From a virus (Duplodnaviria > Caudoviricetes), in IMG/VR virus record IMGVR_UViG_3300025372_000001: 64,000 nt of DNA. One strand, written 5' to 3'. Numbering within the stretch: the first letter of the stretch is position 1; the number at the start of each line of letters is the position of its first letter. The notes beneath the pieces were generated by a model. It did no database searches. It saw only the letters and a list, made by a program, of their open reading frames with translations, and was not told where the DNA came from. This document shows, in pieces, positions 1 through 22,608 of the stretch. The translations under genes were made by a program, and so were the position numbers.

Positions 1-814
1 TTCCATATTCAGTAGAATAAATTGTAACCAATTCATCCAAGTGATCTTTTAGAATATATTTCTTTGCATATTCTCTGCCAAATTCGATTGCCTCTTGATA
101 ATTGGTTTTATTTTTTAATACTTCTTCAATCATCTGCATCATTTGTTCACCAGTATCAAACAGATATTTCCATCCATCAAAATTATAACATTCTAGATTT
201 TGTGCAATCACAGGAATACCAAATGCTCCACCTTCTGTCAATTTAATATTGGATTTGGCTCGATTGAATTCATTTTTCTCTAAAGGAGCAAGCATGATTT
301 GACAATTTAAATTCCTAATAAAATCAGGATATTCAGGAAGAGGAATCCATGGATGAAATTCTACTCCTCTTCCAATAAATTCTCTTAGTCTATAAGGTAA
401 TGCTCCTCCGAGGAATACCCATTCATATTTCTTCTTATTAAGAAGATCATCAATAATGTAGGAATTGATATGTGAAAAATCGTCTTTTTGACCATTTTTA
501 TTAACTACATCGAAATGTGTTGCACTTCCTGCATATAGAATTCTTGGTTTCTTGTTCTTACTTTTCTTATAATTGAAAAGAAGTTTGTCCATGTTGAAAC
601 CAATATCTACTAGATGCTTTGGAGCATAGTTAGGAAGAACGGTAATCTTATGGAAATCTAGTCTTTCTTCATAAAGTTTCTTCATATATGGGGATACAAC
701 TGTTACTTCATCGCAATTTTTAACTAAAATATTATTAGCATAAAAATTATGATTTTTTTCTACGGTTAAATCATAGACAGGTCTTTTCTTCGAAAGCTTT
801 TTTATAGTTATCAT
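1..814 (-). CDS. Split-intein C-fragment (IntC, 33 aa, 716-814) fused to the C-terminal half of a GT-B/GT4-like glycosyltransferase; runs off the window start; absent from the ORF track
   Basis: Manual translation from ATG 814: MITIKKLSKKRPVYDLTVEKNHNFYANNILVKN/CDEVTVVSPYMKKLY...KPRILYAGS...IMLAPLEKNEFNRAKSNIKLTEGGAFGIPVIAQN. Intein block F (VYDLTV) and block G (ILVKN/C) are followed by a GT4-type KSxxKxxE...G.PVIA nucleotide-sugar motif; no stop before base 1. Confidence 0.93.
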   Translation of the reverse strand, partial: MITIKKLSKKRPVYDLTVEKNHNFYANNILVKNCDEVTVVSPYMKKLYEERLDFHKITVLPNYAPKHLVDIGFNMDKLLFNYKKSKNKKPRILYAGSATHFDVVNKNGQKDDFSHINSYIIDDLLNKKKYEWVFLGGALPYRLREFIGRGVEFHPWIPLPEYPDFIRNLNCQIMLAPLEKNEFNRAKSNIKLTEGGAFGIPVIAQNLECYNFDGWKYLFDTGEQMMQMIEEVLKNKTNYQEAIEFGREYAKKYILKDHLDELVTIYSTEYG

Positions 815-1073
815 ATACGTTTAATAAATCAATATTTAATACTTTATTGGGATCAATACAAGTTAGTTGTGAAAGTTCAACTTTGATATTTTGTGCTAAA
901 CATTTTTCCAAAACTTTTTCACACAATCCTACATGTTTTTTACCATTAAACATATAAGGAGAATATGTTTGAGGAAGTCCAACACTTTTTCGAAAATTGC
1001 GCCACTTTTTATAATGTAGATGTTTTTTATCAAGGAAATACTGAAATACAGTATCAATTAATCGTTGTCTATA
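771..1073 (-). pseudogene. Startless in-frame second copy of the C-terminal domain of the adjacent GIY-YIG endonuclease
   Basis: Same frame as 1083..1916, after TAG-GAA-ATT-TAA. LIDTVFQYFLDKKHLHYKKWRNFRKSVGLPQTYSPYMFNGKKHVGLCEKVLEKC aligns by eye with IIDKAIEYFLIRRNIYATPWLKYCKTMGYPQNYDKKSKFRFNGEGTRGFYKAFLAEC. Confidence 0.7.
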
Positions 1074-1082
1074 TTAAATTTC

Positions 1083-1916
1083 CTAGTTTTTTTCCAGTTG
1101 TTCGGCAGTTTTCTCTTTTTTAGATGGCACCTGCTCCCATTTATTTTTATATTTGTCAGGCAAATCTTGTGGCGTAAAGGGAGTAGCATATTCCGCGTAT
1201 ATATTAAAAAGTTCTATGAAACTTCTTCCTCGCATTATATCACATACCATTTCATTGAAAAAAACAGGGATACTTCTTTTTTTGCATTCTGCTAAGAATG
1301 CTTTGTAGAATCCTCTGGTTCCTTCGCCATTAAATCTAAATTTACTTTTTTTATCATAGTTCTGAGGATAACCCATAGTTTTACAATATTTTAGCCAGGG
1401 AGTAGCGTATATATTTCGACGTATCAGAAAATATTCGATGGCTTTATCTATAATCATAACATCAGTTACACCCGTGTATCTACCATTTTTCTCTCCACTA
1501 ACTACTTCTGATCTGATTTTTCTATATTTTTCGTCTTTATAGAAATCTCGATTTCTTGCAAATGGATCGTATACTGCTCCATTTTTTAACATATTGTATC
1601 CTTTTTCACAATTAGTACTATCATATAATGCGATATATTTCTCTTCTATTTCTAATGCCTCATTATGATCGGTGGTGATAGCTAATACTTCGTATGTCAA
1701 ATTCTCTGCCCCATATTTTCGAATAGCATGTTTTAATCTTGTTAAATTTTCGATTTCGTGACTTTTCCCGACACAGTTAGCAACATATATATGCTGTTTA
1801 ATTCGATGTAAAGGTTCTCGCTTTGTATATCCGATATATACTTTATTATTTAAATTAATTTTATATATAGAATATGTGATGGGTTTCTTTTCAGTAGTAA
1901 CAATATCGTCGGACAT
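1083..1916 (-). mobile_element. GIY-YIG homing endonuclease, free-standing between the split-intein halves
   Basis: SIYKINLNNKVYIGYT..R..QH, conserved E (EIEEKYI) and N (GYNM) of the GIY-YIG catalytic domain; own TATAAATA promoter. Confidence 0.9.
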
Positions 1917-1942
1917 TAAAACTATTTATACTACGACGATAT
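1903..1942 (-). promoter_or_regulatory. 9-bp hairpin whose loop contains the late promoter TATAAATA (1923-1930) and the GIY-YIG start codon
   Basis: ATATCGTCG (1903-1911) / CGACGATAT (1934-1942); promoter ends 6 nt before ATG 1916. Confidence 0.75.
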
Positions 1943-1943
1943 A

Positions 1944-2822
1944 TTATACAATATCTAATATATCATTTGATAATAATTCTTCTGCAATAACCCATCCTCT
2001 ATTCTTAGTAAAGATTGGATGATCCGGTGTACAAATAATAGAATGTCCCGAAACACTATCAGTAATCTCTAAAACATCAGCACTATCATTCGTCATCTCG
2101 CATGCTAATAAAGATTTAAATTCTATAACATTGGTATCTAAATCTTTGGACAAAACTTTGATATTTTTGCCTTCATCAAAATATTCTTTAAGTTCTTTAA
2201 GATCAATGTCCATATAAATCCCATCAACTATGGTATTAATGATGGATGATTCATCTACGCATAAATGAACTATTTCTTTTACAATCTTTTCGATTTTATT
2301 ATCTAGGAAACCTTCGCGACAAGCATTATACATTGGCAAGGTGTCAATAAAAATACTATCGTCCACTTCCCACACGATTCTAAATCCCTTACCTGTTTGT
2401 CGCTTAAATTCATTAGAGACTTCTCGTAAAAATTTAACGAATTCTAATTGAGGTTCAGTACATTGTCTCTGAACACGAACGGCATCAATTGCTCCATAGA
2501 AATGAGGAACCATTACCATTTGATATAGGGTCATTACTACTGCTTTATTGTATGCAAGAAGGTCGTCGGCAGGCCAAATCATCCGCCAAAATCCACAACC
2601 AGATTGATCGGCACAATAATGAATGACTCTAGGAAGACCTTCACCAGGAACAGGAATTTTAAAAGGTTCAGGTTTAGGTAGAGGAGTCCAAGGTTTTTTA
2701 GAAATAGGATTATGTCCTATGTGCTTCTTAAAAGGTGTTAAAGGGTGATTATGAGAAGGAGGTTGAGTAGGAACTATACCGGGAACTTTAATATTTGTCT
2801 GGGGTGTAACGAAAGAAGCCAT
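1944..2822 (-). CDS. Glycosyltransferase N-terminal half fused to split-intein N-fragment (IntN, 105 aa, 1947-2261)
   Basis: N-extein VIHYCADQSGCGFWRMIWP...VWEVDD...IVKEIVHL, then Cys1 block A (CVDESSII), block B (CTPDHPIFTKNRGWVIAEEL), ending in a stop with no block F/G. Confidence 0.92.
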   Translation of the reverse strand: MASFVTPQTNIKVPGIVPTQPPSHNHPLTPFKKHIGHNPISKKPWTPLPKPEPFKIPVPGEGLPRVIHYCADQSGCGFWRMIWPADDLLAYNKAVVMTLYQMVMVPHFYGAIDAVRVQRQCTEPQLEFVKFLREVSNEFKRQTGKGFRIVWEVDDSIFIDTLPMYNACREGFLDNKIEKIVKEIVHLCVDESSIINTIVDGIYMDIDLKELKEYFDEGKNIKVLSKDLDTNVIEFKSLLACEMTNDSADVLEITDSVSGHSIICTPDHPIFTKNRGWVIAEELLSNDILDIV

Positions 2823-2849
2823 CTTAAACGTATTTAAGATGGCTTCTTT
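2812..2849 (-). promoter_or_regulatory. 17-bp perfect hairpin covering the ATG of the GT-IntN gene, with late promoter TAAATA (2831-2836) at its apex; may also terminate upstream transcription
   Basis: AAAGAAGCCATCTTAAA-cgta-TTTAAGATGGCTTCTTT; the start codon (2820-2822) lies within the stem. Confidence 0.8.
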
Positions 2850-2870: not shown

Positions 2871-3164
2871 TTAACTATTAAAGAATTGAATTAATTGATC
2901 TTTAGTTTTACCGCCAACTTGTCGTCCTACTTCTACCCCATTTTTATAATGGATAATAGTTGGAACGGCACGAATACCTTCTTGAGAAGCTAGATTACTC
3001 GCTTCATCAGTGTCCACTTTAATGATATTAATTTCTTCTGCTGCTTTCTCGATATTGGGGGCCATCATTTTACAAGGTGTGCAAAAACTTGCACTATATA
3101 CAATAATGAGGTTTTCGTCATTTGCGCGTTTAATTATAGCATCTTTTTCTGTTGTGTATTCCAT
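2871..3164 (-). CDS. Thioredoxin
   Basis: SASFCTPCKMMAP active site, IKVDTD, GIRAVPT; TAAATA (3172-3177) 7 nt upstream. Confidence 0.92.
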   Translation of the reverse strand: MEYTTEKDAIIKRANDENLIIVYSASFCTPCKMMAPNIEKAAEEINIIKVDTDEASNLASQEGIRAVPTIIHYKNGVEVGRQVGGKTKDQLIQFFNS

Positions 3165-3973
3165 ACGTGGTTATTTAATCTTTCGTCTTTTCGTGTTAAA
3201 GTAATATGTGGATAATCGTTTATTCCTTTTATGAGAAGTTCCTGAACTGCATCTTTATTGAAATGTAAATCCCAATATTCCTTTTTTCTTTTACTTATTT
3301 TTCCTCCAAAAAAATATTGTAAGTCTTCTATGAATCCTTTACTGGCAGACACTATACTTATACGGTGTCCTGTTTTTGCTACCCAACCATCGCCATCTGT
3401 TACTCCACGTAAAAAACCTAATCTAAAGTTTTCAGTTGCGGTGGAAAAGGTTTCTATATTTATTCGAAGATCATAAGTCTTATTTGTAAATATCAGAAAT
3501 TGGTGAATGACGTTTTCAAATGCAGGCATCGTTGCAGTATATGCAATCTTATCAGTTTTTCCTAAAGTCGGGGGTTTTATACGGAAATCGGAAATATCTA
3601 TATCTTCTAATAAAGTATCAAAAAACTTAAATAAGCAATCCTTATCTTTTATTGCTAAAGTTATATCTATCCTACTAATCGTATTTTTAATCTTAAAATT
3701 GGTGTATAGGCAACCATCTGCGGCAAAAAATCCTAAACACCATCCCAAATCAAAATCGGATATATTTATTTTAGCTTTATGTTTTATTCTGCCACCTTTT
3801 TCAAAAAATGGACTTTTGATACCACTTTTCTTTCTTAACTCTGAAAGAGTTCGAGATTTTATCTCCAATAAATCACATAACTCTTTTCTATTTTTAGAAG
3901 AGTTATAAATTTTTAATAATTCGATTCGTTTTAAATTTATCTCATATTGTTGAGCGTTAGTATATTTTCGCAT
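3134..3973 (-). mobile_element. Free-standing double-motif LAGLIDADG (DOD/intein-type) endonuclease with N-terminal HTH-like segment
   Basis: WCLGFFAADGC and FLRGVTDGDGW motifs; overlaps the thioredoxin 5' end by 31 bp. Confidence 0.85.
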
Positions 3974-6240: not shown

Positions 6241-6441
6241 TTAAATGTGCTTAAACATTGAACATTTTTCTTGTCCTAAATCTTCATTATCAATAACAAT
6301 GATATTCATTCCAACTTGGAAAGCATTATAATTGTAATAAAGGCATTTCCTGAAATCAGGAGAATCAAAGAACATACCTTTCTTTGTAGTAGGTAATTTA
6401 CTACATTTTCCTTCGTCTGACATAAAAATACATTTATTCAT
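6241..6441 (-). CDS. Small Cys-containing hypothetical protein
   Basis: 66-aa ORF abutting gp46. Confidence 0.55.
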   Translation of the reverse strand: MNKCIFMSDEGKCSKLPTTKKGMFFDSPDFRKCLYYNYNAFQVGMNIIVIDNEDLGQEKCSMFKHI

Positions 6442-6444
6442 AAT

Positions 6445-6744
6445 TTATTCTAATATATAGCAATCTTCATCACCTGTTGCATCTTTGGGACAAATTTCTG
6501 GTTTACAAGAAAGAAAAGTCCGAAGTTCTTCTTTAGTGGAGAATTTAAAAGTGTTCCAACCATCAAATCGAGATTGAATAGCTAATATTGCTTCCTCTGA
6601 ACAATAACCATTTAATAATGCAGCGGTGCAAGGGCCGCTATACTTATAGTGTTCCGAATCTACAGGAAATAAAATTAAAGAATGTAGTAAACACTGCTCA
6701 AAGTTTTCTTGATTTTCTAATATTTGATCTAAGGTATATTTCAT
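6445..6744 (-). CDS. Hypothetical protein
   Basis: 99-aa ORF, ATGA overlap with upstream gene. Confidence 0.6.
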   Translation of the reverse strand: MKYTLDQILENQENFEQCLLHSLILFPVDSEHYKYSGPCTAALLNGYCSEEAILAIQSRFDGWNTFKFSTKEELRTFLSCKPEICPKDATGDEDCYILE

Positions 6745-7751
6745 TGTTTAAAACTTAAAATTAATTCATTCACTTTCTCTTGTGACATATCCGCATATTC
6801 TTGTTTGGTATGAAGTTTACGTAATTCACCCATGACTCTTCCTACTTCTTTACCATCACTAATATTGATAAGTTCCATGACTTTATAACCATTAACCTTT
6901 TCTTTAAAGGCTTTATCAAAAAGATAGCGAACTTTATTCTTTTTGATAGATTCTTTTAAAATAGGAAAACGTTCCGCCCATTCACAAATATAATATTCGC
7001 GTCGTTGAAAAACGTGTCGATTATATTTCCATGAATTCTTTTCAAGCCATTCTACGAAACCCTTGTAAACGATTCTCTTAGAATTTCTCACGCGATTTAC
7101 GTGGTTAAGATTTTCAAATTTGAAGATTTCAGGATCAAAATATTTTGAACTAGCTACCCAATGATATACTTCTTCATTGGTATCAAATCCATTTTTCCAA
7201 TGTTCATAATCGAATCCTAATAAGGGAAGAATAACTGAAAAGTCCTTTGTAAGAATGACCTTTTCCATAATATTATCATTATCTAAGAAGTTTAATTTAC
7301 TTTCAAAGAAACTCTGACGAATCCAATAAGATAAACCCGTGTGTCCTAGATGAACATCCATCTTGTGAGCAATCCTACCTTGAAACATGCCAACGTCGCC
7401 CCAACTAGTATAATCAATAGAAGATTGATAATCCTTCATTGGAACAAAGGTTAAATCTACTTGAAATCCTGCAATAGGAAATGAAATAACATTGGAATTT
7501 ACATGAACCTCCATTTGAAGATATTCTTCTAGTGTACGTCGAGTATCCAGAGAACCATCCATTCCAACAATAATATCTAAGTCTCCGGGAGATTCTTTTA
7601 GTCGAATTGACGGAGCAACACCTAATTTCCAAGTAGAAGGAAATACTTCTTTCATATCACGAAGAATATTATCTTTAAAGATATGATATTCTTCGTTAGA
7701 AAGTCGCTTTTCTGGCAAATCCCAGATTGATTGAATTAGTTTTCCACCCAT
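6741..7751 (-). CDS. Pol-beta-superfamily nucleotidyltransferase (phage type); start revised to MGGK at 7751
   Basis: MGG start typical of this phage family, KESPGDLDIIV and FQVDL acidic motifs; promoter 8 nt upstream of ATG 7751. Confidence 0.75.
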   Translation of the reverse strand: MGGKLIQSIWDLPEKRLSNEEYHIFKDNILRDMKEVFPSTWKLGVAPSIRLKESPGDLDIIVGMDGSLDTRRTLEEYLQMEVHVNSNVISFPIAGFQVDLTFVPMKDYQSSIDYTSWGDVGMFQGRIAHKMDVHLGHTGLSYWIRQSFFESKLNFLDNDNIMEKVILTKDFSVILPLLGFDYEHWKNGFDTNEEVYHWVASSKYFDPEIFKFENLNHVNRVRNSKRIVYKGFVEWLEKNSWKYNRHVFQRREYYICEWAERFPILKESIKKNKVRYLFDKAFKEKVNGYKVMELINISDGKEVGRVMGELRKLHTKQEYADMSQEKVNELILSFKQ

Positions 7752-7788
7752 GATTCCATATACTAACACATGGAATCTATATAGGCAA
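7752..7788 (-). promoter_or_regulatory. Sigma70-like promoter TTGCCT-N17-TAGTAT (extended -10) embedded in an 8-bp hairpin abutting the start codon
   Basis: -35 at 7783-7788, -10 at 7760-7765; GATTCCAT/ATGGAATC arms at 7752-7759 and 7770-7777. Confidence 0.6.
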
Positions 7789-7792
7789 ATTA

Positions 7793-7999
7793 TTAACTAA
7801 GAGTTGCCTTAATTACTTCCAATTGTTTAGCAGAAATTTCCCCCTTAATAAATTTTTCGATATTTTCTCGAAGAATATCTGCTTTAGTAATTTCTTTAGG
7901 AGCAGGGGGGGCAACAGGTTGAGGAGTAGGTCCGAAATTGCCGCGAATTGGATCAGGATAGTTGGATACACCAAAGGTGCTAGAGGTTGTCATGGACAT
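7793..7999 (-). CDS. Small Pro-rich hypothetical protein
   Basis: 68 aa; TAAATA (8009-8014) 9 nt upstream. Confidence 0.65.
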   Translation of the reverse strand: MSMTTSSTFGVSNYPDPIRGNFGPTPQPVAPPAPKEITKADILRENIEKFIKGEISAKQLEVIKATLS

Positions 8000-8020
8000 A
8001 GATGGAGGTATTTATTTCCA

Positions 8021-8749
8021 TCAGATATAACTATCAATTCCTCTGTGCCAAATTCCGTCGTCTCTTCTTTCAATTATTCCTTGCTCAATATGAACCAATT
8101 CTCCTACTCGTTCCCCATTAACCCTCAATAAACAAGTCTTTAAACAATCTAATGTTTCTACTTCTATTCCATGATAATTAACCAGAAACATTAGGAATCT
8201 TTCATAGAAAGAATTTCCGCCCATTCTAATATAATATGGCAATAGATCGTATCCATCAGCAATCAAATCCATATTCGTTGAATTAGTAATATAAAATCTA
8301 TCACATAGTCCGTGCCAATCATCATGGTTCAATGTCCATATTTTTTGGAAATCAAATTCTTCAATATTATCAGGTAAAGCAGTATCTTCTAAGAGAAGTA
8401 AATCGGGTCGAACACGAACAACAATATCATATTTAAAATTATGGGCTTCTTCGTATCTTTGTTTTATTTTATTACATTGTTGTAAGCAATACAATTGTCG
8501 AAACATTCCTTGAGTAGCATGTTCATTGACTAAATCAAGATTAAGGTCTTTTCTCGTTTCGGAATGAAATTTTATAACATGATCATTTACTCCTAAAAAG
8601 GTGTTCATTTTATCAATATGGGGGTCATCTTGCCAGAAAAAGATAAAAATATCATAATCCTTAAATTTAGAGAGTATATTCTTCTCTAATAGATGAAACG
8701 TTTTATCGAGGGAACGAAATTCACCGGAAAAACAAATAGCAGTTCTCAT
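8021..8749 (-). CDS. Putative glycosyltransferase-like protein of viral glyco-islands
   Basis: AICFSGEFR and YDIVVRVRPDL (DxxxRxRxD) motifs, DRFY. Confidence 0.6.
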   Translation of the reverse strand: MRTAICFSGEFRSLDKTFHLLEKNILSKFKDYDIFIFFWQDDPHIDKMNTFLGVNDHVIKFHSETRKDLNLDLVNEHATQGMFRQLYCLQQCNKIKQRYEEAHNFKYDIVVRVRPDLLLLEDTALPDNIEEFDFQKIWTLNHDDWHGLCDRFYITNSTNMDLIADGYDLLPYYIRMGGNSFYERFLMFLVNYHGIEVETLDCLKTCLLRVNGERVGELVHIEQGIIERRDDGIWHRGIDSYI

Positions 8750-9717
8750 TATAAACTATCAAGGAATACTGATTTAAATTTCTTCATCACTTCATTAGGA
8801 GTAAATGCTTTATAGGCATTCCAATCTCTATAAGTCCATTCCTTATTAAATGAGGATAATATCTGATAAACTTCTTCTTTATTAGAATAATAAATTCCTT
8901 TATCTTTCAGGGTAAAGATATGATTTCTTTCAGGACTATTAGCATAAGTGATAACTGGTTTATTGCATAAAGAAAATTCTGCACATGCTGCTCCGAAACT
9001 TTCTCCTACATGTCTAGCATGAATCATTGCATCACAAGTATTAATGAACTTCCTTTTAACGGTTAAATCCGCAAAAGGATGGGTATGAATGATTCGAGGA
9101 TGATTGAAGAATTGAGGAGTTTGAGCAAAAAGAAAGTAAACATCATCTCGTTCAGATAAGATTTTAACTATTGCTTCATTTACGAAATGAATATCCCAGC
9201 CATAATGTCCGCCCATTCTACCAAACACAATTGCATCACGAGGAATACCAATTTGTTCTCTAAAGTCTTCTTGAGTGTCTGGTAAATGAACACAATAAGG
9301 AACAAAAGGATGCTCTCCTTTAGAGCAATGAATGCTTGACCATTCAGAAACATATGCATATACTTTTCCATGAGGTTCGTTGTTCATTCCTACTACATGA
9401 ACAAACATGGGAACATTATTGACCCATCTTCCTTCATTGATTTTACCGTTTTTTTGAAGATAACAAGCGGCAGCATTATGTTGAGTAATTGCATCCTCAA
9501 GAGCAGGCATATTTTGTGTTCCCGGTAATGCAACTAATTCAATATTATGTTGTTTGAATTTCTCAATTACTAAAGGACTGTTATAGGAATTAACTTCATC
9601 ATAAATCATCACAGATTTATTTCCAAGAATGGATTGATTGAAGTGACAATAATCGAAGTAGGAAACTCCTGTTCCTTGGAGGTCCATATGAGGTTGATAA
9701 AATGCTAAAGTGCTCAC
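8749..9717 (-). CDS. GT-B/GT4-like glycosyltransferase
   Basis: CDAMIHARHVGESFGAACAEFSLCNKPVIT motif. Confidence 0.85.
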   Translation of the reverse strand: MSTLAFYQPHMDLQGTGVSYFDYCHFNQSILGNKSVMIYDEVNSYNSPLVIEKFKQHNIELVALPGTQNMPALEDAITQHNAAACYLQKNGKINEGRWVNNVPMFVHVVGMNNEPHGKVYAYVSEWSSIHCSKGEHPFVPYCVHLPDTQEDFREQIGIPRDAIVFGRMGGHYGWDIHFVNEAIVKILSERDDVYFLFAQTPQFFNHPRIIHTHPFADLTVKRKFINTCDAMIHARHVGESFGAACAEFSLCNKPVITYANSPERNHIFTLKDKGIYYSNKEEVYQILSSFNKEWTYRDWNAYKAFTPNEVMKKFKSVFLDSL

Positions 9718-10532
9718 AATAAACTATATTCTTTTTGTTCTCTAATCTGTTCTTTGATACTTTTAGTAACCAACTTAGTAGTATCGTAAATAGAATCAAG
9801 CGTTCGGTAAATGCTCTTTGGCGCAAAAGATGGGATAATATCCACGGTCAAGCCATATAATTCATTGATTTTAGTAATCAAATCAAATTTGGAACAAACA
9901 TCGGGAGAATGAATATGTCGAACTCCTTCCCATATCATATTGTTTTCTATGATATGATGAATAAATTTGCTTAATTCTAAGCAAGTTACGCCATTCCATA
10001 AATGATTATCATAGCCATTTATAGTTTGACCTTTACTAGCTTTTACCCATTCTAATAGGGATTTTTTATGTCTAAGTTCTTCTCCGATAATAGACGTGCG
10101 AATGACACATGCTTTATCTGGTTCTCCTAAGCTTTTACTTTTACCATAAACACTTGTTTCATCGTGTTCATCTTTTTCATCATAACCGCCAGTTCTACCC
10201 GAAAAGACACAATCAGTGGTAATATGAATTAACTTAGCTCCGAGAGCACTACAAAGATATTGCAATTCATGTGGCAGAACAGAATTAATCAATATGCTAT
10301 CTAGAGGATTTGAGTCTTTTCGTTGAGGTACAATACCGATACAATTAATGACAATATCATTTTTAGACAAAACTAGATGTCTATTTAAACATGTAATACT
10401 TTCCCCATTTAGCGACAGGTTATTACGTGTGAAGTGTAATATCCTATAATCTTTAACGGGATTGCGTTTTAGATATGTATACACATATCTTCCTAACATC
10501 CCATTTGCTCCTAATACTAAAATATTATTCAT
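9714..10532 (-). CDS. rmlD: RmlD-like NDP-4-keto-6-deoxysugar reductase (SDR)
   Basis: GANGMLG, INCIG, HITTDCVFSG, YGKSKSLGE, IRTSIIG. Confidence 0.88.
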   Translation of the reverse strand: MNNILVLGANGMLGRYVYTYLKRNPVKDYRILHFTRNNLSLNGESITCLNRHLVLSKNDIVINCIGIVPQRKDSNPLDSILINSVLPHELQYLCSALGAKLIHITTDCVFSGRTGGYDEKDEHDETSVYGKSKSLGEPDKACVIRTSIIGEELRHKKSLLEWVKASKGQTINGYDNHLWNGVTCLELSKFIHHIIENNMIWEGVRHIHSPDVCSKFDLITKINELYGLTVDIIPSFAPKSIYRTLDSIYDTTKLVTKSIKEQIREQKEYSLL

Positions 10533-11476
10533 GGTTTATAAAAATTATGCTCTTCTAAAAATTCATATAATTCTTTTTCATCGATTAAACAATTCCTAGA
10601 CGAATATTCATTATCAGTAAAAGAAAATGCATTGTTTTGTATGTTTTTATGAATATTGAAAACATCATATTGATCATTCCAAGTCGTTCTCGGCATCTCT
10701 TCTGGAGCAATCATCAATTCATGAATCTTTTCATTAGGCCGTGGAACGGTAATATCATACTTTAATTTAAAAATATCATGATATATATTAAACAAATCTT
10801 TAACTTTGAAGCTCATTGCAGCAGGAACAACATTGACATTATTAAATTGCAATGATTTATAAATCAAATCCATTGCTTCTTCAATAGTTAAAAGAAACCT
10901 TGTCATATCCTCCCCAAACAAGGACAAAGTTTTATCATTCTTAATATATTTCCAAATTAAAGGAATAATTGAACCGGTTGAATTAACTACATTGCCATAT
11001 ACAACAGAAACTAATCGAGTAGAAACGTCTTCATTATTAGAAATAAAACTTTCAGAAGCAGTAAATTTCATTGAACCGTAAATGGTACTTGCTGCTCTAC
11101 TTTTATCAGAAGAAATAAAACAAGCAGCTTTCAACTTGTTATCAATTGCTGCCTTCTTTGAATTGAATGCGCCCTGAACAATGATTTGATTGGCTTCTTC
11201 GTAATTAGTTTCACATGCCTCGATTTGCTTCATACTTGCTGCAAAGATACCAATATCCATTCCTCTCATTGATCTATTCAAATGATCAAAATTACGAATA
11301 TCCCCGACAATAAATTTAACCTTGGGAAACTCTTTCTTTAAGAAATAATGTTTGGCTTCATCTCTGGAGAAAACGGTAATTTCATTATTTTGATATAAAT
11401 CCTTGATTAGATTTTTACCAAGATAACCTGCTCCTCCCGTGATAAAAACACGGGAATTTATGGGTCGATAACTCAT
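10529..11476 (-). CDS. UDP-GlcNAc 4,6-dehydratase (PseB/FlaA1/FnlA-like)
   Basis: ITGGAGYLG, FSRDEAKH, GDIR, AASMKQI, SSDKS, YGSMK, YGNVVNSTGSIIP, MTRF, RPNEKIHE. Confidence 0.9.
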   Translation of the reverse strand: MSYRPINSRVFITGGAGYLGKNLIKDLYQNNEITVFSRDEAKHYFLKKEFPKVKFIVGDIRNFDHLNRSMRGMDIGIFAASMKQIEACETNYEEANQIIVQGAFNSKKAAIDNKLKAACFISSDKSRAASTIYGSMKFTASESFISNNEDVSTRLVSVVYGNVVNSTGSIIPLIWKYIKNDKTLSLFGEDMTRFLLTIEEAMDLIYKSLQFNNVNVVPAAMSFKVKDLFNIYHDIFKLKYDITVPRPNEKIHELMIAPEEMPRTTWNDQYDVFNIHKNIQNNAFSFTDNEYSSRNCLIDEKELYEFLEEHNFYKP

Positions 11477-12039
11477 GCTAGGGTCAATATATCATCAATA
11501 CTCTGTCCTTGCAAGATGATACTTTTATTATTAAAGTAATAATCAAAGTCTTTTCTTTCATAAACTAAAATATTCTTATTTGGTTGAACTTTAACAACAC
11601 CTAATACATCATTACTTGGAAAGATATAAGAAAAAGCATTAAAATTCGGATTGCCTCTGATTTCAATAAATGAAATATATGCGGTTCCACTAGCAGTTTG
11701 TTTAGTATTATCTAAATTCTCTGGTCCAACATCATGCATGAAAATAATTCCATCAGGATTTAATGCTTTTACTGCATTCTCAAAATCTTTATTAACTTGC
11801 GAGTATTCGTGGTATGCATCAATATAAATCACATCAAATGTTTGAGTATTCTGTTTAAAGAAATCATCGGTTGTTCCCAAGAAATCAGGTCTTGTCCGAG
11901 GATTAGTATCTATTCCTTTTTTATGTAAACATTTAATTCTATCAAATGTTTCTCTTGCTTCTCCTAATCCTAATTCAAGATAAGAAGAATATTGCTTATG
12001 TTCTATAACTCGGTTGATTAATTCAAATTTATCTTTCAT
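11473..12039 (-). CDS. Class I SAM-dependent methyltransferase (Methyltransf_24-like)
   Basis: YLELGL, FDVIYIDAYHEY, GIIFMHD. Confidence 0.85.
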   Translation of the reverse strand: MKDKFELINRVIEHKQYSSYLELGLGEARETFDRIKCLHKKGIDTNPRTRPDFLGTTDDFFKQNTQTFDVIYIDAYHEYSQVNKDFENAVKALNPDGIIFMHDVGPENLDNTKQTASGTAYISFIEIRGNPNFNAFSYIFPSNDVLGVVKVQPNKNILVYERKDFDYYFNNKSIILQGQSIDDILTLA

Positions 12040-12952
12040 ATTGTTCAATTTTATCCATTACGTATCTGGCTCTGGCAATAGTTGTTCCATTTTCTTTCAA
12101 CCATTTCTGTTGAGCCTCGTATAATTCTATATATTCCTTCGTTGGTTTATTATCAATTACCAATCTATTCATTATCTCATATAATTCTTGTTCAGTATGA
12201 TATGAAATAGTTGGAAGATTTCGAGGTTCCATTAAAGGATGTTTATCTTGGTAATTTTTAAACAATAAAACGGCTCCATTTGCCATTATTTCATAATGAC
12301 GAAGGCATTCCCATCCTCCTTTTACACAAGTCAAACCAAACCAACTTTCTTGAAGGTCTTTATAGTATTCTTCTTCTGCATTGAATTTTTGAGTAGAATT
12401 ATTCCGAAAACAAGCATCAGCAGGAGAAGTTTGTTGAAACAACTGTTTCTTTATTTCTAAATTTATATTTGATATTTTATGAGAAGGAATACCGAAACCA
12501 ATCGGCCAAACAGTATCAAAATCTTCCACTAATTCACGTTTAAAACATTTGGAAAGGAATTGTGTTCCAATAACTTCTTGCCCTTTATACGTTATTTTCC
12601 TTTCTGCATTACCATAAAGATCGTTTCCATCTGTATAGAATTGATTGGGATGATTTACGTTCCATCTGTCTCCGTAAATGAATCCTGAACCGTGAATAAC
12701 TACATCAAAATCAATTACTCTTAGATTATTTCTATCATATGATGCATCTTTGATGGGCGAAGTACAGAAAGTCATACCTTTTCCATGCAGTTTATTCATG
12801 GGAGATTCAGTAAAATCACCATAAAGTATTTTCTTTTTCGGAAATTCAACGAAGTCTTCTCCTAATAGTTCTCTTAATCCATGAACCAAGGTTAACTCAA
12901 GGTAATCGCCTTGAGCATTAGAATTTCTAGTACATAAAAATAAAACTTTCAT
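12029..12952 (-). CDS. Putative GT-B glycosyltransferase
   Basis: GGWECLRHYEIMANGAVLLF, resembling the R.YE..A.G motif of GT-B C-domains; island context. Confidence 0.65.
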   Translation of the reverse strand: MKVLFLCTRNSNAQGDYLELTLVHGLRELLGEDFVEFPKKKILYGDFTESPMNKLHGKGMTFCTSPIKDASYDRNNLRVIDFDVVIHGSGFIYGDRWNVNHPNQFYTDGNDLYGNAERKITYKGQEVIGTQFLSKCFKRELVEDFDTVWPIGFGIPSHKISNINLEIKKQLFQQTSPADACFRNNSTQKFNAEEEYYKDLQESWFGLTCVKGGWECLRHYEIMANGAVLLFKNYQDKHPLMEPRNLPTISYHTEQELYEIMNRLVIDNKPTKEYIELYEAQQKWLKENGTTIARARYVMDKIEQYER

Positions 12953-13713
12953 TATTGTTGAACCAATCTAATATCTGATAAATTATGAATAGGTCGATTT
13001 TGAATCATGCTACTGGCAGAAGGTCCACTATTAGGACGATTATATTCAATATTAAGTTGACTATCATTCCAATTTTTCCATGATTTTTTAATATCTTCTC
13101 GTTCTTTTCCTAAAAATAAATCCCACTGTTCGTATTTCTCTTCGGGAAGATTTTTAATGATAATGTTACTGTATCGCATATCGTATTTTGCATCCCAATG
13201 AGGTTGAGAATAACGACATTTACTGTTTATATCTTGTAAGGGACTTTTTGCTTCCCCATAATTATAATTTGACTCTTGTGATTCATATAATGCTAAATTA
13301 TGTTGTTTTAAACGGAAAACAAAATCTCTATCTTCCCATCCTCCTCCAATAAATCGTTCATCCCACCAACCAATCGTTCTAATTAATTGCTTGGAGAACA
13401 TCATGTACCCAACATTATACATAAAAGAAGCAGCATAACCTTCTTTCATATGATTAATCATTTTCAGTGCTTCTTCTAAAGTGATTATCGATCTATCATT
13501 GACAAAAATCATCCATTCATATTTGGAAGTAGCAATGGCATGATTCATCATTAAGCTATAAGACTTATAGGCATGGGGATAACGTTCCGAGCGTAAATTC
13601 CAATCAATCTCATAATTTCTTTCTAATTCTCCCAGAATATGTTTTTGTTCCTTCTCAATAGAAGATGAATGTCCTACATGTAAATTTATACTAATTTCTC
13701 CAATATCAATCAT
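12952..13713 (-). CDS. GT-A/GT2-like glycosyltransferase
   Basis: WMIFVND, WWDERFIGGGWEDRDFVFR. Confidence 0.75.
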   Translation of the reverse strand: MIDIGEISINLHVGHSSSIEKEQKHILGELERNYEIDWNLRSERYPHAYKSYSLMMNHAIATSKYEWMIFVNDRSIITLEEALKMINHMKEGYAASFMYNVGYMMFSKQLIRTIGWWDERFIGGGWEDRDFVFRLKQHNLALYESQESNYNYGEAKSPLQDINSKCRYSQPHWDAKYDMRYSNIIIKNLPEEKYEQWDLFLGKEREDIKKSWKNWNDSQLNIEYNRPNSGPSASSMIQNRPIHNLSDIRLVQQ

Positions 13714-14624
13714 AATTTTTTAAAGTCGGTATATGCTAATTCTATTCCTTGTTCCAATTTAACCATTGGTTTCCATCCTAATGATTTAATAATATCCACA
13801 TTCATCAATTTAGAATAAGTTCCGTCTGGTTTAGTTGTATCCCAAATAATCTTTCCTTTATATCCAACTACTTTCTTAATAGTGTTTGCTAATTGGTTAA
13901 TAGATACATTTATTCCTGAACCAATATTGACTATATGAAATTCTGGTCTAGATTCAAGAACTTTATAACAACCTTTGGCAAGATCATCTGCCCAAAGAAA
14001 CTCTCTCAACGGTTTACCTGATCCCCACAAGGTAACAGTTGGTTTCTTTTCAATTTTTGCTTGATGAAATTTCTTAATTAAACCAGGAATAACATGAGAA
14101 TTTTGTTCATGATAATTATCACCAATTCCGTATAAGTTACAAGGCATCACTGATCTATAATTTAATCCATATTGTTGTGAATAATATTCACAAAGTTTAA
14201 TTCCGGCTATCTTGGCAATTGCATAAGGTTCATTAGTAGGTTCTAGTGAACTAGTTAATAATTGCTCTTCTTTAATGGGATTAGGAGTAACTTTGGGATA
14301 GATACAAGAGCTTCCTAAGTAGAGCAGGTCTTTGACTTGAGTTTTATATGCGGAATGAATGCAATTGGCAGCAATCATTAAGTTTTCATAAATGAAATCG
14401 GCAGGAAAGGTGGAATTGGCGAGTATGCCTCCTACTTTTCCTGCCGCAATGATTACCGAATCAATTTCTTCTGATTGAAAGAAATCTTCTACATCTTCTT
14501 GAGAGGTTAGATCAAGTTCTGAATGGGTTTTATAGACAGGTTCATATCTGGTTAAATCTAAGTTTTTTAGTAGGGAAGTTCCTACTAAACCTTTATGTCC
14601 TGCTATGAAAATCCTCTTACGCAT
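13710..14624 (-). CDS. fcl: GDP-L-fucose synthase
   Basis: IAGHKGLVG, AAGKVGGILAN, LGSSCIYPK, LEPTNEPYAIAK, PCNLYG, SHVIPG, WGSGKPLREF, KPDG. Confidence 0.95.
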   Translation of the reverse strand: MRKRIFIAGHKGLVGTSLLKNLDLTRYEPVYKTHSELDLTSQEDVEDFFQSEEIDSVIIAAGKVGGILANSTFPADFIYENLMIAANCIHSAYKTQVKDLLYLGSSCIYPKVTPNPIKEEQLLTSSLEPTNEPYAIAKIAGIKLCEYYSQQYGLNYRSVMPCNLYGIGDNYHEQNSHVIPGLIKKFHQAKIEKKPTVTLWGSGKPLREFLWADDLAKGCYKVLESRPEFHIVNIGSGINVSINQLANTIKKVVGYKGKIIWDTTKPDGTYSKLMNVDIIKSLGWKPMVKLEQGIELAYTDFKKL

Positions 14625-15589
14625 CAAATAATTATATAGTCACATGCTTTGAGACTATCAAGGTTCTTCCCGCCTGAATAACTTACACTAGATTTCAGAC
14701 TATCTTCAATTAATTTAATTTGCTCTTTTAAAGTTAATCCATTGGTATCAGTATGAATGATGGTTCCTTCGACATTAGAGGAATGACCTTTTGCTTTGGC
14801 GGTAGAATTACCGTAATAACCTTCACGAATGGCAGGAGAGTCGATACATTGAGAGAATAAGAATCCACTACAGACATAATTTGCTCCGAATCGAATAGCT
14901 TTGGCAATATCACCGATTGCAGGTTCTCTTGTTGCACATTTAGTAATACCTCCATCAGAGATGATTTTAATCTTATTTTTAGCTTGGGCCATTCGATAAA
15001 GATCACCAATAGAGGTCGAACCAAAACCGGTGAATTGACGGGTTCTACAACTTTGACTAATTCCAATATTAACCTTTGCAGCATCTACACCTAAATCTTC
15101 TAACCATCTGATCCAATCAGGATGATCCCCATTACCAACAATTAAATAAGCAGCAGGAAGATGTTCTTTAATATATTTGATCATTCTTTCTACTTGATCT
15201 TGCCAAGATAATGCAACATCAATAGTGATATAAAGATTATTTTTTTTATAATGGTCTTTAATCCATTGAACTAATTCATAATCAGAATCTTTAACTCCGA
15301 TAGAGACGGATGCAATATTCCAATTATCTTTTTCGACTCTGGTAAGGAAATCTTTAATTTGAGAATAGGGGCAAGTACGATGAAAGATATAGAACCACCC
15401 TGCTTTATCAAAGATTTCGCAAATATCTTCATTGATAATGGCTTTCATATTTGCAGGGAAAACCGGTGAATTGATTTTGATATGGCCTATAAGGGTAGAA
15501 ATATCACATTCTTTTCGTGAATTTATAATACATCTACCATGTTTAAGTAGAATATTTTCATAGGTTAGGTGTTGGGGTATGTTATTCAT
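14624..15589 (-). CDS. guaC: GMP reductase (IMPDH/GMPR family), divergent
   Basis: SPVFPANM, SIGVK, TIDVA, GNG, KVNIGISQSCRTR (catalytic Cys loop), IISDGGI, GDIAKA, YYGNST, NVEG, SSVSYSG. Confidence 0.85.
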   Translation of the reverse strand: MNNIPQHLTYENILLKHGRCIINSRKECDISTLIGHIKINSPVFPANMKAIINEDICEIFDKAGWFYIFHRTCPYSQIKDFLTRVEKDNWNIASVSIGVKDSDYELVQWIKDHYKKNNLYITIDVALSWQDQVERMIKYIKEHLPAAYLIVGNGDHPDWIRWLEDLGVDAAKVNIGISQSCRTRQFTGFGSTSIGDLYRMAQAKNKIKIISDGGITKCATREPAIGDIAKAIRFGANYVCSGFLFSQCIDSPAIREGYYGNSTAKAKGHSSNVEGTIIHTDTNGLTLKEQIKLIEDSLKSSVSYSGGKNLDSLKACDYIII

Positions 15590-15590
15590 A

Positions 15591-16370
15591 TTAGTTAATC
15601 CAAGATTTTGCTACATTCCAATTACTTCCGGTAAAGTGCCGGAATTTTACTTTACTTCTATCATCAAACTTATTGATATAGAAAGTAGTATCAGATTCAC
15701 CGGGCCAAATAGTTAGGTTATATTCTACGGGAAGAATTTGCACATGTCTATTAAAATCTTCTACCGAATAAAATGTAGTAATCTTCTTGTCGGAATGAAC
15801 TCCATTATTAGGTAATTCTGTGAAGGGAATCCATGAATGACGCTTAATACCGAAAAGATCGTAGAAGACCGCCTGCTCACGGAATTCATTTAAAAATATT
15901 GATGGTGGTCTATTAGGAAATCCTTCATGAATAGTATATTCTCTTGACATTCGCTGAAAGCGATCTTCGTCAAGGATATTATCTACTAACTGTCGAGTCC
16001 AATCATTGATTCTCAATCCAAAAATACCGTGGCAGTACGAGTTTCCAGAGTCTATACAAATTGTCATAGACTTATCCTCGGCAGGTTCATAATCATCTAC
16101 CCAAGATTTTACCACAACATCCGCATCTTGTTGAATAATTATATCATTCTCTTTTAATGTTTCGCTTTTAATTAGTGATTGAATAATGCTCCATTTACAC
16201 CAAGTTAAGTTGCCGCGAAAAGGAACAGGATTATGTTCTTTCCGAATCTCTACATATTTAAATCCATGCAGTTCACAGTAATCTTTATTTCTAGGAGAAA
16301 TAATCTCGTCAAAAATCTTCTGGCGATAATCATTTTCTGGATAGGCACTGATAACAAATAGGTATTTCAT
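15591..16370 (-). CDS. GT-A glycosyltransferase, GT34 (Mnn10/GMA12)-like
   Basis: WCKWSII, QQDADVVV (DxD), EQAVF, LPVEYN, FRHFTG. Confidence 0.7.
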   Translation of the reverse strand: MKYLFVISAYPENDYRQKIFDEIISPRNKDYCELHGFKYVEIRKEHNPVPFRGNLTWCKWSIIQSLIKSETLKENDIIIQQDADVVVKSWVDDYEPAEDKSMTICIDSGNSYCHGIFGLRINDWTRQLVDNILDEDRFQRMSREYTIHEGFPNRPPSIFLNEFREQAVFYDLFGIKRHSWIPFTELPNNGVHSDKKITTFYSVEDFNRHVQILPVEYNLTIWPGESDTTFYINKFDDRSKVKFRHFTGSNWNVAKSWIN

Positions 16371-16537
16371 TCAAATATATAATTCTTTAGATTGTTGAGA
16401 GCTTCTTTATATTCAGCTAATAATTTCTGGAAATGTGCATCATCTATTTCTTCCCAATACGAATACTCGTCCATGGCATAATGAAAGCCTTCAAAACTTA
16501 TAATTTCTTTAATATAATCTTTAGCGTTTTTGTCCAT
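16367..16537 (-). CDS. Hypothetical protein (56 aa, not in ORF track)
   Basis: MDKNAKDYIKEIISFEGF...NYIFE*; ATGA overlap with next gene. Confidence 0.6.
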   Translation of the reverse strand: MDKNAKDYIKEIISFEGFHYAMDEYSYWEEIDDAHFQKLLAEYKEALNNLKNYIFE

Positions 16538-16567
16538 CTTATTTTCTCAAATAAATTAATAGGTATT

Positions 16568-16786
16568 TCATCGATCTAGTAGATATGCTTGATAATATAT
16601 ATCAGCCAAATTCATTATCAATTCTTGAGCACGACTTTCATCCCAATGTTCGGATTTAGACATATTATATGCTATTTTTAAATATTCTCTAATATCAAAT
16701 ATTTTTTCTAATTTCATATTTCTATATTCAATTTGAAACTTTTCATGCTCATACATGGGAGCAGGTACAATTATATCTTCTATCAT
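16568..16786 (-). CDS. Hypothetical protein
   Basis: 72-aa ORF, ATGA overlap. Confidence 0.55.
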   Translation of the reverse strand: MIEDIIVPAPMYEHEKFQIEYRNMKLEKIFDIREYLKIAYNMSKSEHWDESRAQELIMNLADIYYQAYLLDR

Positions 16787-17646
16787 AATCTCTTCAAAAT
16801 CTGATTACAAGTGCCCTCAAGCGTGAACCAATCATCGTATAATTCTTTCGCTTTTCTCAGCATACCATTATATCTTTCTTTATCATTATAAATTTCCATT
16901 AAAATATCATGCATGTGGTAAATTTGATCGGGTTTAATGATAACACAAAAATCTTGCCACTTCAATTGTTCTTCCCAAGGAAGCCAATGTTTATCTGAAA
17001 CATAAACAGGAACAGAATTTAATTGCATTGCCTCATATAATCTAAAACTGGCGGGCGCGTTCCCTCTTATCGCTAAAGTGAAAGCAGATTGTGAAGTTAT
17101 TGTAATAAATTCATCTAATTTTTCTGATGGTAATGTTTGTTGCCAATTTTCCATAGGAGGAAAATAACAATCTTTATATTTTCGTAATACTTCATAAGTG
17201 TATTGTCTTAAAGGGTGTGTCATCCTACCCACAAACGAACAAAGGTATTTTTTGTTGTCGGTGATTATTAGCTTTTCTTGGGGTATTTTAGACACTACTA
17301 ATGGAATAGGCACTTTATATGTTCCCGATCCTCTGTCGCTTGCAGCAGCAAATACAGTGGTATTACGGGGCAATGTATGTAATACCCCATCATCAAACTG
17401 AACAATTGTAAAATATTCTTCATTTTGTGGAAGAGCATTTAAATATTCCTGAACAGGGATAGGATTCTGTTGAACATATATAGGGGTCCACCAAACGGCT
17501 AGATATTTTTTATTAGTTTTAACTTTATCTTTGTTAGCATGAAATGCATTAAAGAAACTTTCCTCCAAATAAGTTTCAGGATTCGCATATGGTGGCATGG
17601 GAGGATACTCGGATTTTATCCTAAGTTTTGAAAAATCGTAAATCAT
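16783..17646 (-). CDS. Exostosin-family (GT47) glycosyltransferase
   Basis: YLCSFVG..T, SAFTLAIRGNAPASFRLYEAMQLNSVPVYVSDKHWLPW..W. Confidence 0.88.
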   Translation of the reverse strand: MIYDFSKLRIKSEYPPMPPYANPETYLEESFFNAFHANKDKVKTNKKYLAVWWTPIYVQQNPIPVQEYLNALPQNEEYFTIVQFDDGVLHTLPRNTTVFAAASDRGSGTYKVPIPLVVSKIPQEKLIITDNKKYLCSFVGRMTHPLRQYTYEVLRKYKDCYFPPMENWQQTLPSEKLDEFITITSQSAFTLAIRGNAPASFRLYEAMQLNSVPVYVSDKHWLPWEEQLKWQDFCVIIKPDQIYHMHDILMEIYNDKERYNGMLRKAKELYDDWFTLEGTCNQILKRL

Positions 17647-17647
17647 A

Positions 17648-18355
17648 TTATTTTAATTTCTCCTTAAAAAGTTCTAACAATTGCTCTTTATGCTCATAAT
17701 GACAATAATTACCATGAAGAAATAATAACTTCTCTTTAAAGGGAATTTCAAAGGTGTTATCTGTTCCATCCCATACTTTACCTGCAATAGACCCATACGT
17801 AAATGCAACATCGAACGGAAGAACATTAAACTTAATGTCTTTTAATTCAAAAAATCTATGTTTATTCACTAAAAGCCAGGTGAATACTTCCTGTTCATTA
17901 GCAAATGTTGGTTGCCCTGGAACAAGAGTTGTGCCATGCATAATAACATTAACTGCCTTCATTAAATTCCTAGTATTTTCCGTGGATTTGATACATATTA
18001 TTCCAGTACAATAATTGGGAAAATGAGGAAAAGGAGAATCAGATTGACATAGAACATCATAATCCTTCATTGCTTTTTGAACATAATCAAAGAAGTTCTG
18101 AACAATGATAATATCAGTATCCACAAAAAGATAATATTCTCCATCAGGAGTAGTCATTAACTCATTGTATAACAGTTCTGATTTTATTTGCATGAAGTTC
18201 TTCCATTCGGAAGAATTAAATTTTGGTTTCTCTCCTGCTAATTGTGGAGCTTCTACTGCTTTTAATTCCAAACGATCATCTTTAGGAAAAGATGGAAGAA
18301 AATATTCTTCATACATTTTTTTATGGCTTGGACTATATAATGTTACGATTTTCAT
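17648..18355 (-). CDS. Nucleotide-diphospho-sugar transferase (GT77-like)
   Basis: LFVDTDII (DxD), YDVLCQSD, CTGIICIKS, NEQEVF, HGNY. Confidence 0.8.
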   Translation of the reverse strand: MKIVTLYSPSHKKMYEEYFLPSFPKDDRLELKAVEAPQLAGEKPKFNSSEWKNFMQIKSELLYNELMTTPDGEYYLFVDTDIIIVQNFFDYVQKAMKDYDVLCQSDSPFPHFPNYCTGIICIKSTENTRNLMKAVNVIMHGTTLVPGQPTFANEQEVFTWLLVNKHRFFELKDIKFNVLPFDVAFTYGSIAGKVWDGTDNTFEIPFKEKLLFLHGNYCHYEHKEQLLELFKEKLK

Positions 18356-18358
18356 CAA

Positions 18359-20025: not shown

Positions 20026-20027
20026 CT

Positions 20028-22069: not shown

Positions 22070-22098
22070 TTTAATTATGATAATTTACCATAAATGAT

Positions 22099-22455: not shown

Positions 22456-22459
22456 AATA

Positions 22460-22591
22460 TTAAAATAAATCAGAATCGTCAACCGTTTTTGATTTTAAAA
22501 AATCTGTAAATTCTTCTAATGCGAGTATCAACCCTTCTGTGCTCCAATTTCTCATTTGCGGAACATCAAAAAATACTTCGTGTTCATTCAT
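22460..22591 (-). CDS. Hypothetical protein (43 aa, not in ORF track)
   Basis: MNEHEVFFDVPQMRNW...DLF* fills the gap between genes. Confidence 0.45.
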   Translation of the reverse strand: MNEHEVFFDVPQMRNWSTEGLILALEEFTDFLKSKTVDDSDLF

Positions 22592-22608
22592 ATCAGTTAT
22601 TTTTATTC

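Follow-up and report, generated by a model that had tools for sequence, protein, structure and literature searches.

Evidence for a glycosyltransferase gene fractured by a split intein and a GIY-YIG homing endonuclease gene in a T4-like phage

Inteins and fractured genes are strongly biased towards proteins of replication, repair and nucleotide metabolism. A 64,000-nucleotide stretch of DNA from an uncultured, freshwater, T4-like phage (IMG/VR record IMGVR_UViG_3300025372_000001; the whole stretch is called the window below) raises the question of whether this bias is a rule, since a glycosyltransferase (GT) gene lies in two pieces at its start, with intein-like sequences at the break. Are these pieces the remnants of a dead gene, the subunits of a two-chain enzyme, or the halves of a fractured gene whose products are joined after translation? 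Our analysis supports a fractured gene, in which a host gene is combined with a split intein and a stand-alone homing endonuclease gene, and we infer from the sequence that protein trans-splicing is very probably the mechanism that restores the enzyme.

Three co-oriented reading frames occupy positions 1-2822 of the window on its minus strand: the N-terminal half of the GT fused to the N-terminal half of an intein (IntN), a GIY-YIG gene, and the C-terminal intein half (IntC) fused to the C-terminal half of the GT. The first is an open reading frame (ORF) of 292 aa at 1944..2822(-), composed of 187 extein and 105 IntN residues. Its N-extein (2262..2822(-)) holds GT residues 1-187, ends in KEIVHL, and is assigned by PHROG family 7162 and by likeness to the GTs of L001-L003 (L numbers designate the loci compared here). 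IntN (1947..2261(-), 105 aa) begins with Cys1 and is closed by a stop codon at 1944-1946. Two stops and a 27-nt spacer (1917..1943(-)), which runs from the IntN stop to the endonuclease ATG and carries a TATAAATA motif resembling a T4 late promoter, separate this ORF from the GIY-YIG gene, whose start is at 1916. The latter (771..1916(-)) is a frame of 381 codons plus a terminal stop, with two internal in-frame stops. Finally, IntC (716..814(-)) consists of 33 aa from an ATG at 814, with a block F and a block G reading ILVKN (end NHNFYANNILVKN), and is followed by the C-extein (2..715(-)), which opens on Cys+1 in CDEVTVVS and continues into the GT C-half. Within the window lie 238 of the 257 C-extein residues, the final 19 and the stop falling beyond its start; this is why the ORF from ATG 814(-) is absent from the ORF track. 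In L090, a contig 100% identical to the window, the full C-half ORF can be read at L090:8009-8881 and has 290 aa, and the predicted spliced enzyme thus has 187 + 257 = 444 aa. A sequence-only reading of this DNA had already described an N-half with a 105-aa IntN (Cys1, TxxH, stop) and an unlisted 33-aa IntC followed by Cys+1 and the C-half, and both descriptions hold in coordinates and motifs.

Do the two fragments make up one intein? Against the 155 positions of the Pfam Intein_splicing profile (PF14890), IntN matches positions 11-92 and IntC positions 125-155, in a complementary manner. The NCBIfam profile intein_Cterm (TIGR01443) gives IntC 35.3 bits for a cut-off of 15.6, and intein_Nterm (TIGR01445) gives IntN 22.4 bits, just below its cut-off of 24.5, with the full profile (1-83) covered; the search that the sequence-only reading had called for gives matches to both halves. 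The N-terminal nucleophile, Cys188 of the N-half (CVDE), is invariant in the related loci L094 and L095. Block B reads T-P-D-H in the window, T-S-D-H in L094 and T-E-D-H in L095, and aligns with CTPDHP of the NrdJ-1 intein. The block F Asp (F:4, in VYD) and His (F:13, in NHNF) within VYDLTVEKNHNF, to which the roles described in PMC4031507 can be given, are kept in all three lineages, and block G has its terminal Asn followed by Cys+1. The two halves are also of opposite charge: IntN has 22 acidic (D/E) and 8 basic (K/R) residues, and IntC 7 basic and 2 acidic. Structure prediction of IntN and IntC as a complex scored 0.75, the best of three controls reaching 0.01. The mark used was reached by 51 of 78 solved complexes and by 2 of 108 mismatched pairs; this pass may reflect likeness to solved split-intein complexes rather than binding of this particular copy.

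The interrupted protein can be recognised from its two parts. PHROG 7162 (glycosyltransferase, E=8e-17) is matched at profile positions 6-96 by the N-half and 90-299 by the C-half, out of 309; the coverage is consecutive, and the two ORFs are therefore successive portions of a single gene. A scan of IMG/VR that took the N-half as its query showed that at least 243 viral stretches encode relatives of this GT, of which 80 loci were kept for comparison. All full-length copies in the kept loci are contiguous, with ~410-460 aa, and they represent 63 distinct intein-less sequences. The closest intein-less GTs (L001-L003, 455 aa) are 73% identical to the N-extein and 79% identical to the C-extein over residues 201-438; their junction reads REIVKYVDEMTVVS, and that of L004 reads AIVSLTDEMTVVS. 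The intein-less L005 reads IVHLCDEVSVVS / RIVHLCDEVSVVS across the junction, which is the predicted spliced sequence EIVHL-CDEVTVVS. These contiguous GTs, and the match of L005 in particular, confirm HL|C as the insertion site. The break lies one residue ahead of an invariant Asp-Glu and a nearly invariant Thr-Val, and in 38 of 66 aligned family members a native Cys occupies the +1 position.

Modelled with AlphaFold (pLDDT 85.3), the intact L001 enzyme has the insertion point in a turn where helix 185-197 gives way to strand 200-203; this is the final such turn in the N-terminal half, ahead of the 206-233 segment. When this model was compared with the PDB using Foldseek, BshA, MshA, PimB', HepE and WaaG were retrieved (E ~1e-10 to 1e-8, TM 0.5-0.68), and SQD2 and MshA were found among Swiss-Prot models. 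The predicted structure and its matches to retaining GT4 enzymes support, at the fold level, a GT-B, GT4-like enzyme. The label of "GT4-type" given by the sequence-only reading is therefore supported for the fold. Among Pfam families, Glyco_trans_1_2, Glyco_trans_1_4 and Glyco_transf_4 match the C-half below their gathering scores, with E-values of 2e-4 to 7e-3.

We considered T4-style DNA-base glucosylation because the GT is located within the replication module, with gp46 on one side and DNA polymerase on the other. A gene of the thymidylate-synthase/hydroxymethylase family is absent in five relatives, three of them complete (~225 kb), and T4-style glucosylation of hydroxymethyl bases is therefore not supported. 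The top hits of the fold search are GT4 enzymes, not the T4 alpha- or beta-glucosyltransferase.

The fractured arrangement is not restricted to the window. A protein search with the IntN region retrieved three GT N-halves bearing the intein, which we call P0001, P0002 and P0003. The IntN region is 99% identical to the window in P0001 (ENA contig of 25,115 bp, ERZ1426848), 84-85% in P0002, whose layout was read in L094, and 61-63% in P0003, whose layout was read in L095 and which is also found on a 245-kb contig. On all their contigs the order is the same: GT-N+IntN, a gene of 373-386 aa, then IntC+GT-C overlapping it by ~45-50 nt, and the junction is HL|C in the three relatives. IntN is 105 aa long in all GT lineages, with 56-84% identity among variants. 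IntC is 94% identical to the window in L094 and 79% in L095 (range 73-94% when L094 and L095 are included), and VKN is kept in both. The three lineages do not differ at Cys1, block B (Thr, His), block F (Asp, His), the terminal Asn, Cys+1 or the penultimate Lys, and no stop or frameshift was found in the extein or intein halves.

The sequence itself is recovered independently. The 292-aa N-half ORF is found letter for letter on eight contigs, and the four of these compared over DNA (two JGI and two Logan assemblies, from different samples) are 100% identical to the window, which disposes of the concern, raised by the sequence-only reading, that the junctions might be an assembly artefact. The sequencing runs that contain the stretch are freshwater, pond and peat metagenomes, and contigs from pond metagenomes carry a 90-95% identical relative that spans the junction between IntC and the endonuclease tail. 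The joined, intein-less form of the window strain was not seen in contigs from four DNA runs. A scan of JGI metagenomes for contiguous or endonuclease-less versions returned 597 pattern matches and no confirmed relative. Among 50,697 phage records, a megablast of the region gave no match that would point to a cultured relative; tblastn gave distant GT matches in Streptomyces phage Zuko and phi92-like phages, and an intein match in a Yersinia phage NrdA.

Several observations have to be set against a fractured, trans-spliced gene. Each intein half scores under the whole-domain cut-off of PF14890, as is expected for half domains. Upstream of the IntC ATG (window 815-830(-)), a Shine-Dalgarno-like sequence is not evident. 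The IntC start sits 44-50 nt inside the endonuclease frame in all lineages (44 nt of overlap in the window), and translation of IntC+GT-C may be coupled to this overlapping frame in the relatives; stops interrupt this frame in the window, where the 60-aa remnant ORF 953..771 is all that might be left for coupling. No RNA run containing the stretch was found. In addition, the penultimate residue of block G is Lys (VKN|C), not the usual assisting His, in the window, L094 and L095 alike, as the sequence-only reading had remarked for the window. In DnaE inteins, the last two residues are Ser-Asn (Npu) and Ala-Asn (Ssp). Splicing in the absence of the penultimate His is documented by Chen, Benner & Perler 2000 and by Sun et al. 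2005 for Ssp DnaE, both cited in PMC4031507. The Lys reads as a conserved trait of this clade rather than a defect, unusual but not disqualifying.

The strength of selection has its own limits. We calculated pairwise Nei-Gojobori dN/dS among the window, L094 and L095, and obtained 0.07-0.22 for IntN, 0.05-0.22 for IntC, 0.07-0.22 for the exteins and 0.23-0.38 for the endonuclease; these values are rough, with dS at ~0.5-2.8 and near saturation (one extein pair is saturated), and the ~44-50 nt of IntC that overlap the endonuclease frame add constraint there. Judged by these ratios, the intein halves are conserved at least as well as the enzyme that they interrupt, and purifying selection on both halves is supported.

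Upstream of L094 IntC (L094:3940-3960), the start codon is likewise without a Shine-Dalgarno-like sequence.

On this evidence, the following course of events can be proposed. The first gene would give GT residues 1-187 with the acidic 105-aa IntN, and the second the basic 33-aa IntC with GT residues 188-444. Once translated, the fragments would be drawn together by their complementary charges and, by exchanging strands, build a class-1 HINT fold. Cys1, Cys+1 and the terminal Asn would then carry out the splicing, which would join KEIVHL to CDEVTVVS by a peptide bond and release the 444-aa enzyme. Spread of the composite element was presumably driven by the free-standing GIY-YIG endonuclease, which would have cut intein-less alleles in co-infected cells. 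In the window strain the endonuclease would just have been inactivated or truncated by its two stops, the intein halves staying under selection because the GT depends on them.

Other explanations account for part of the same observations. The intein fragments could serve only as a non-covalent dimerisation device, giving a two-chain GT without a peptide bond in the manner of Aeh1 NrdA. The replacement of the penultimate His by Lys would fit such a device, and so would the precedent of a split ribonucleotide reductase assembled without splicing (PMC3045599; cited in PMC2677866); the complex prediction, moreover, supports association and not chemistry. NrdJ-1 and related VHN inteins of the same family are, however, active splicers, and all the chemistry residues are invariant in three lineages at near-saturated synonymous divergence, which pure docking would not need. 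We consider a docking device unlikely. Less probable still is a GT gene killed by a selfish element, the pieces being decaying remnants. The window endonuclease does already bear two stop codons, and the intein-less relatives show that the GT gene can exist unbroken. Yet dN/dS stays at 0.05-0.22 for extein and intein halves between lineages that differ at most synonymous sites, their frames are open in three lineages, and conservation of the GT family extends to at least 243 viral contigs; a dead gene thus has very little in its favour.

Finally, the sequence is metagenome-derived and comes from no isolate, and one might think of an assembly chimera, or of halves joined at the RNA level by an intron. 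The identical sequence in independent JGI and Logan assemblies and the same layout in diverged lineages speak against the former. As for an intron, no group I intron or other Rfam family was found in the region at E<=1, and the intein blocks lie exactly at both junctions. We regard either version as extremely improbable. A fractured gene whose products would be spliced in trans remains the best account, and the sequence-only reading of a fractured gene is strengthened by the intein-less alleles, the independent assemblies, the diverged lineages with selected intein halves and a complex prediction that passes its controls.

What has become of the endonuclease? The gene between the halves does carry the GIY-YIG domain announced by the sequence-only reading (Pfam PF01541, 28.1 bits for a cut-off of 22.6), and PHROG homing endonuclease families match it; but the ORF at 1083..1916 is not the whole gene, which is decaying. 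The frame stops at codon 278 (TAG, 1083-1085) and again at codon 281 (TAA, 1074-1076). The ORF 1083..1916 (277 aa) keeps the catalytic domain and is in the same frame as the 60-aa ORF 771..953; the final 101 codons persist in frame as a remnant that includes this ORF, and the window does not encode the complete protein with its C-terminal part. Intact orthologues have 373-386 aa, and the gene is intact in L094, L095 and the P0001 strain. The 386-aa L094 orthologue aligns over 1853..774 at 63% identity and matches TIGR01453 (group I intron endonuclease) with E=8e-10, below the cut-off; in the P0001 strain, whose IntN region is 99% identical, the gene call runs through 382 aa uninterrupted. As read from its sequence, the window copy is one that lost its C-terminal third very recently. 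Decay of the endonuclease after fixation of the element is the usual fate of homing endonucleases, and the loss in the window fits that fate. In GIY-YIG homing enzymes it is the C-terminal part that binds DNA (Dassa 2009, PMC2677866).

A 9-bp inverted repeat flanks TATAAATA and encloses the endonuclease ATG, with a weak predicted fold (-12.6 kcal/mol, z=-1.6). A translational-lock hairpin at the endonuclease start is not retained on this basis: the predicted fold does not reach significance in the window, and a similar repeat in L094 and L095 gives different minimum-energy folds. We keep it as a lead.

The GT tree gives a view of the history of the element. All three GTs with the intein belong to one well-supported subclade of seven members, where they are interleaved with L004 and L001/L002, which lack it; this distribution requires at least two gains or losses. 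Intein-less members within this subclade are changed at positions -2, -1 and +1 (KY|V and SL|T), and the outgroup L005 keeps HL|C. Over the 12 extein residues ahead of the junction, the window and L095 share 11/12, against 57% identity overall, and the window and the intein-less L001 share 6/12, against 76% overall. Co-conversion during homing would produce such a pattern, and so would selection by the intein on its junction context, two explanations that the pattern does not separate.

Where did this intein come from? Its nearest solved structure is the NrdJ-1 split intein 8UBS (IntN E=4e-17, ~42% identity over 91 residues). Outside GT genes, its nearest natural relatives are the N-halves of fractured ribonucleotide reductase genes, with an IntN ~50% identical in L097/L098. 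In L084-L086, another ribonucleotide reductase version has an IntN of exactly 105 aa that is 41% identical, an IntC that is 73% identical and a different intervening gene. In L097/L098, the intervening gene encodes a 251-aa GIY-YIG protein, of which ~200 residues are homologous to the endonuclease of the GT locus (31-37% identity, E down to 4e-27). Homologous inteins and homologous endonucleases are thus found at both loci, and the intein and the endonuclease therefore probably moved together. The junctions are also alike, SNL|CVEI in ribonucleotide reductase and VHL|CDEV in the GT, with L|C-x-E-[IV] in common. This likeness may have guided an ectopic insertion, which we offer as a lead and not as a result; at the nucleotide level the two junctions match at 13-14 of the 24 central bases, which is suggestive only. 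A fuller scenario, possible but in our view rather doubtful, would have the split intein and the GIY-YIG gene move as a unit from the active-site motif of ribonucleotide reductase to its look-alike in the GT, followed by the His to Lys change and by fixation of the -12..-1 context. If true, it would provide a traceable natural switch of an intein to a host protein outside nucleic-acid metabolism, with snapshots of the homing cycle.

The L097 locus is itself composite. At L097:1777-7024, the large subunit of ribonucleotide reductase lies in three pieces of 356, 380 and 357 aa, with a 376-aa gene and the GIY-YIG gene between them, and the middle piece runs from the end of one intein to the IntN of another.

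How does the locus compare with known systems? Dassa, London, Stoddard, Schueler-Furman & Pietrokovski 2009 (PMC2677866) described 26 fractured loci in GOS metagenomes, mainly of phage, in which the halves of the host gene carry a split intein and are separated by a stand-alone endonuclease gene of GIY-YIG or Vsr-like type. The hosts are eight kinds of enzymes of DNA synthesis, repair and nucleotide metabolism, including gp41, IMPDH, DnaE, NrdA, NrdJ, ligase and terminase, and an acidic IntN with a basic IntC was reported for NrdJ-1, NrdA-2 and IMPDH-1 (PMC2677866). The GT locus resembles these fractured genes in its layout and orientation, its mainly phage context, its possible hairpin in the 5' region of the endonuclease and its acidic IntN and basic IntC. 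It differs in its GT4-like host, in a block G that reads VKN instead of VHN, and in offering a natural series of an intact endonuclease, an endonuclease with stops, and intein-less alleles. The sequence-only reading had listed replication and nucleotide-metabolism enzymes as the known hosts, in agreement with Dassa et al. 2009 (PMC2677866), and had found a GT host unexpected. Our literature search gave no GT host either: we found no earlier report of an intein in a glycosyltransferase, which, with incomplete coverage of the literature, is absence of evidence only.

The NrdJ-1 intein (PDB 8UBS/9OMB) and the NrdA-type inteins of L084, L097 and L098 have nearly the same IntC (DLTV..NHNFYANNILV.N|C), but sit at the active-site motif SNL|CVEI with a penultimate His, where the GT element has VHL|CDEV and Lys. 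The cyanobacterial DnaE split inteins (Ssp, Npu) are likewise naturally split class-1 inteins of ~100 + 35 aa with Cys1 and Cys+1, and they splice without the penultimate His (Sun et al. 2005, as cited in PMC4031507). Weak IntC sequence matches to 4KL5 and 4LX3 indicate a distant relationship; unlike in the GT locus, the DnaE halves lie far apart, have no endonuclease between them, and are cellular rather than phage-borne. Finally, Aeh1 NrdA, split by an HNH gene (PMC3045599), and gp43 of Aeromonas phage 25, split by a GIY-YIG gene, are phage genes broken by a free-standing homing endonuclease gene into two polypeptides. They have no intein and are assembled non-covalently, whereas the GT break is flanked by complete intein blocks.

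The surroundings of the fractured gene can be read in L090, where its neighbours are, in order, a gp46-like SbcC/Rad50 gene, a LAGLIDADG gene, thioredoxin, the fractured GT, a small ORF, a family B DNA polymerase and UvsX; the phage is therefore T4-like. The thioredoxin gene (2871..3164) lies directly upstream of the GT, and we considered it as a redox control of the intein; this was set aside, the intein-less L001 having the same upstream thioredoxin. At 2812-2849(-), the window has a perfect 17-bp hairpin (-23.2 kcal/mol, z=-6.9, 0/200 shuffles as good), with the GT-N start codon in its 3' arm and a TAAATA motif. An equivalent hairpin covers the GT-N start codon in L094 (GGCCATGTTAAATATTTTTAACATGGCC), and the window structure looks like a T4-style late-gene control of the GT.

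Between gp46 and thioredoxin, a free-standing LAGLIDADG gene (window 3134-3973(-); Pfam LAGLIDADG_3, E=3e-11) is present in the window and in L094 and absent from the P0001 strain (ERZ1426848 contig) and L001. This adds a second polymorphic selfish gene at less than 2 kb from the fractured GT. In L094, the adjacent family B DNA polymerase is fractured as well (L094:5001-7821): a 667-aa ORF matches polymerase over residues 1-554 and, immediately after the DTDS motif, has a ~113-aa tail, with VTEDHS near its end, which is followed by an unrelated ORF. We take this tail for a putative IntN of the known PolB split-intein type. The polymerase call is 552 aa in the ERZ1426848 strain, and the gene is intact in the window lineage (L090:9239-11827, 862 aa). 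After gp46, the window continues into a long run of co-oriented minus-strand ORFs (6241-22608). The fractured GT is not part of this run but of the replication module, and unlike the run this GT is conserved in hundreds of T4-like contigs.

For what concerns the intein as a tool, the locus provides a naturally split member of the fast NrdJ-1 family in which the conserved penultimate residue is Lys and not His. Its three natural variants and the native junction HL|CDE are material for the study of block G variation and extein context and for split-intein tool sets. Its orthogonality is not assured because it belongs to the NrdJ-1/NrdA family, in answer to the suggestion of the sequence-only reading that it might be a new orthogonal pair.

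Layout, intein family and endonuclease family have all been on record since 2009; the GT adds a host protein to a known kind of element and involves no new mechanism. The related loci display several states of a homing cycle side by side: a live endonuclease in L094, L095 and the P0001 strain, a dying one in the window, and empty alleles that either look susceptible (L005) or have a changed site (L001, L004). A conserved and selected example in a GT indicates that this arrangement is not restricted to proteins of replication, repair and nucleotide metabolism.

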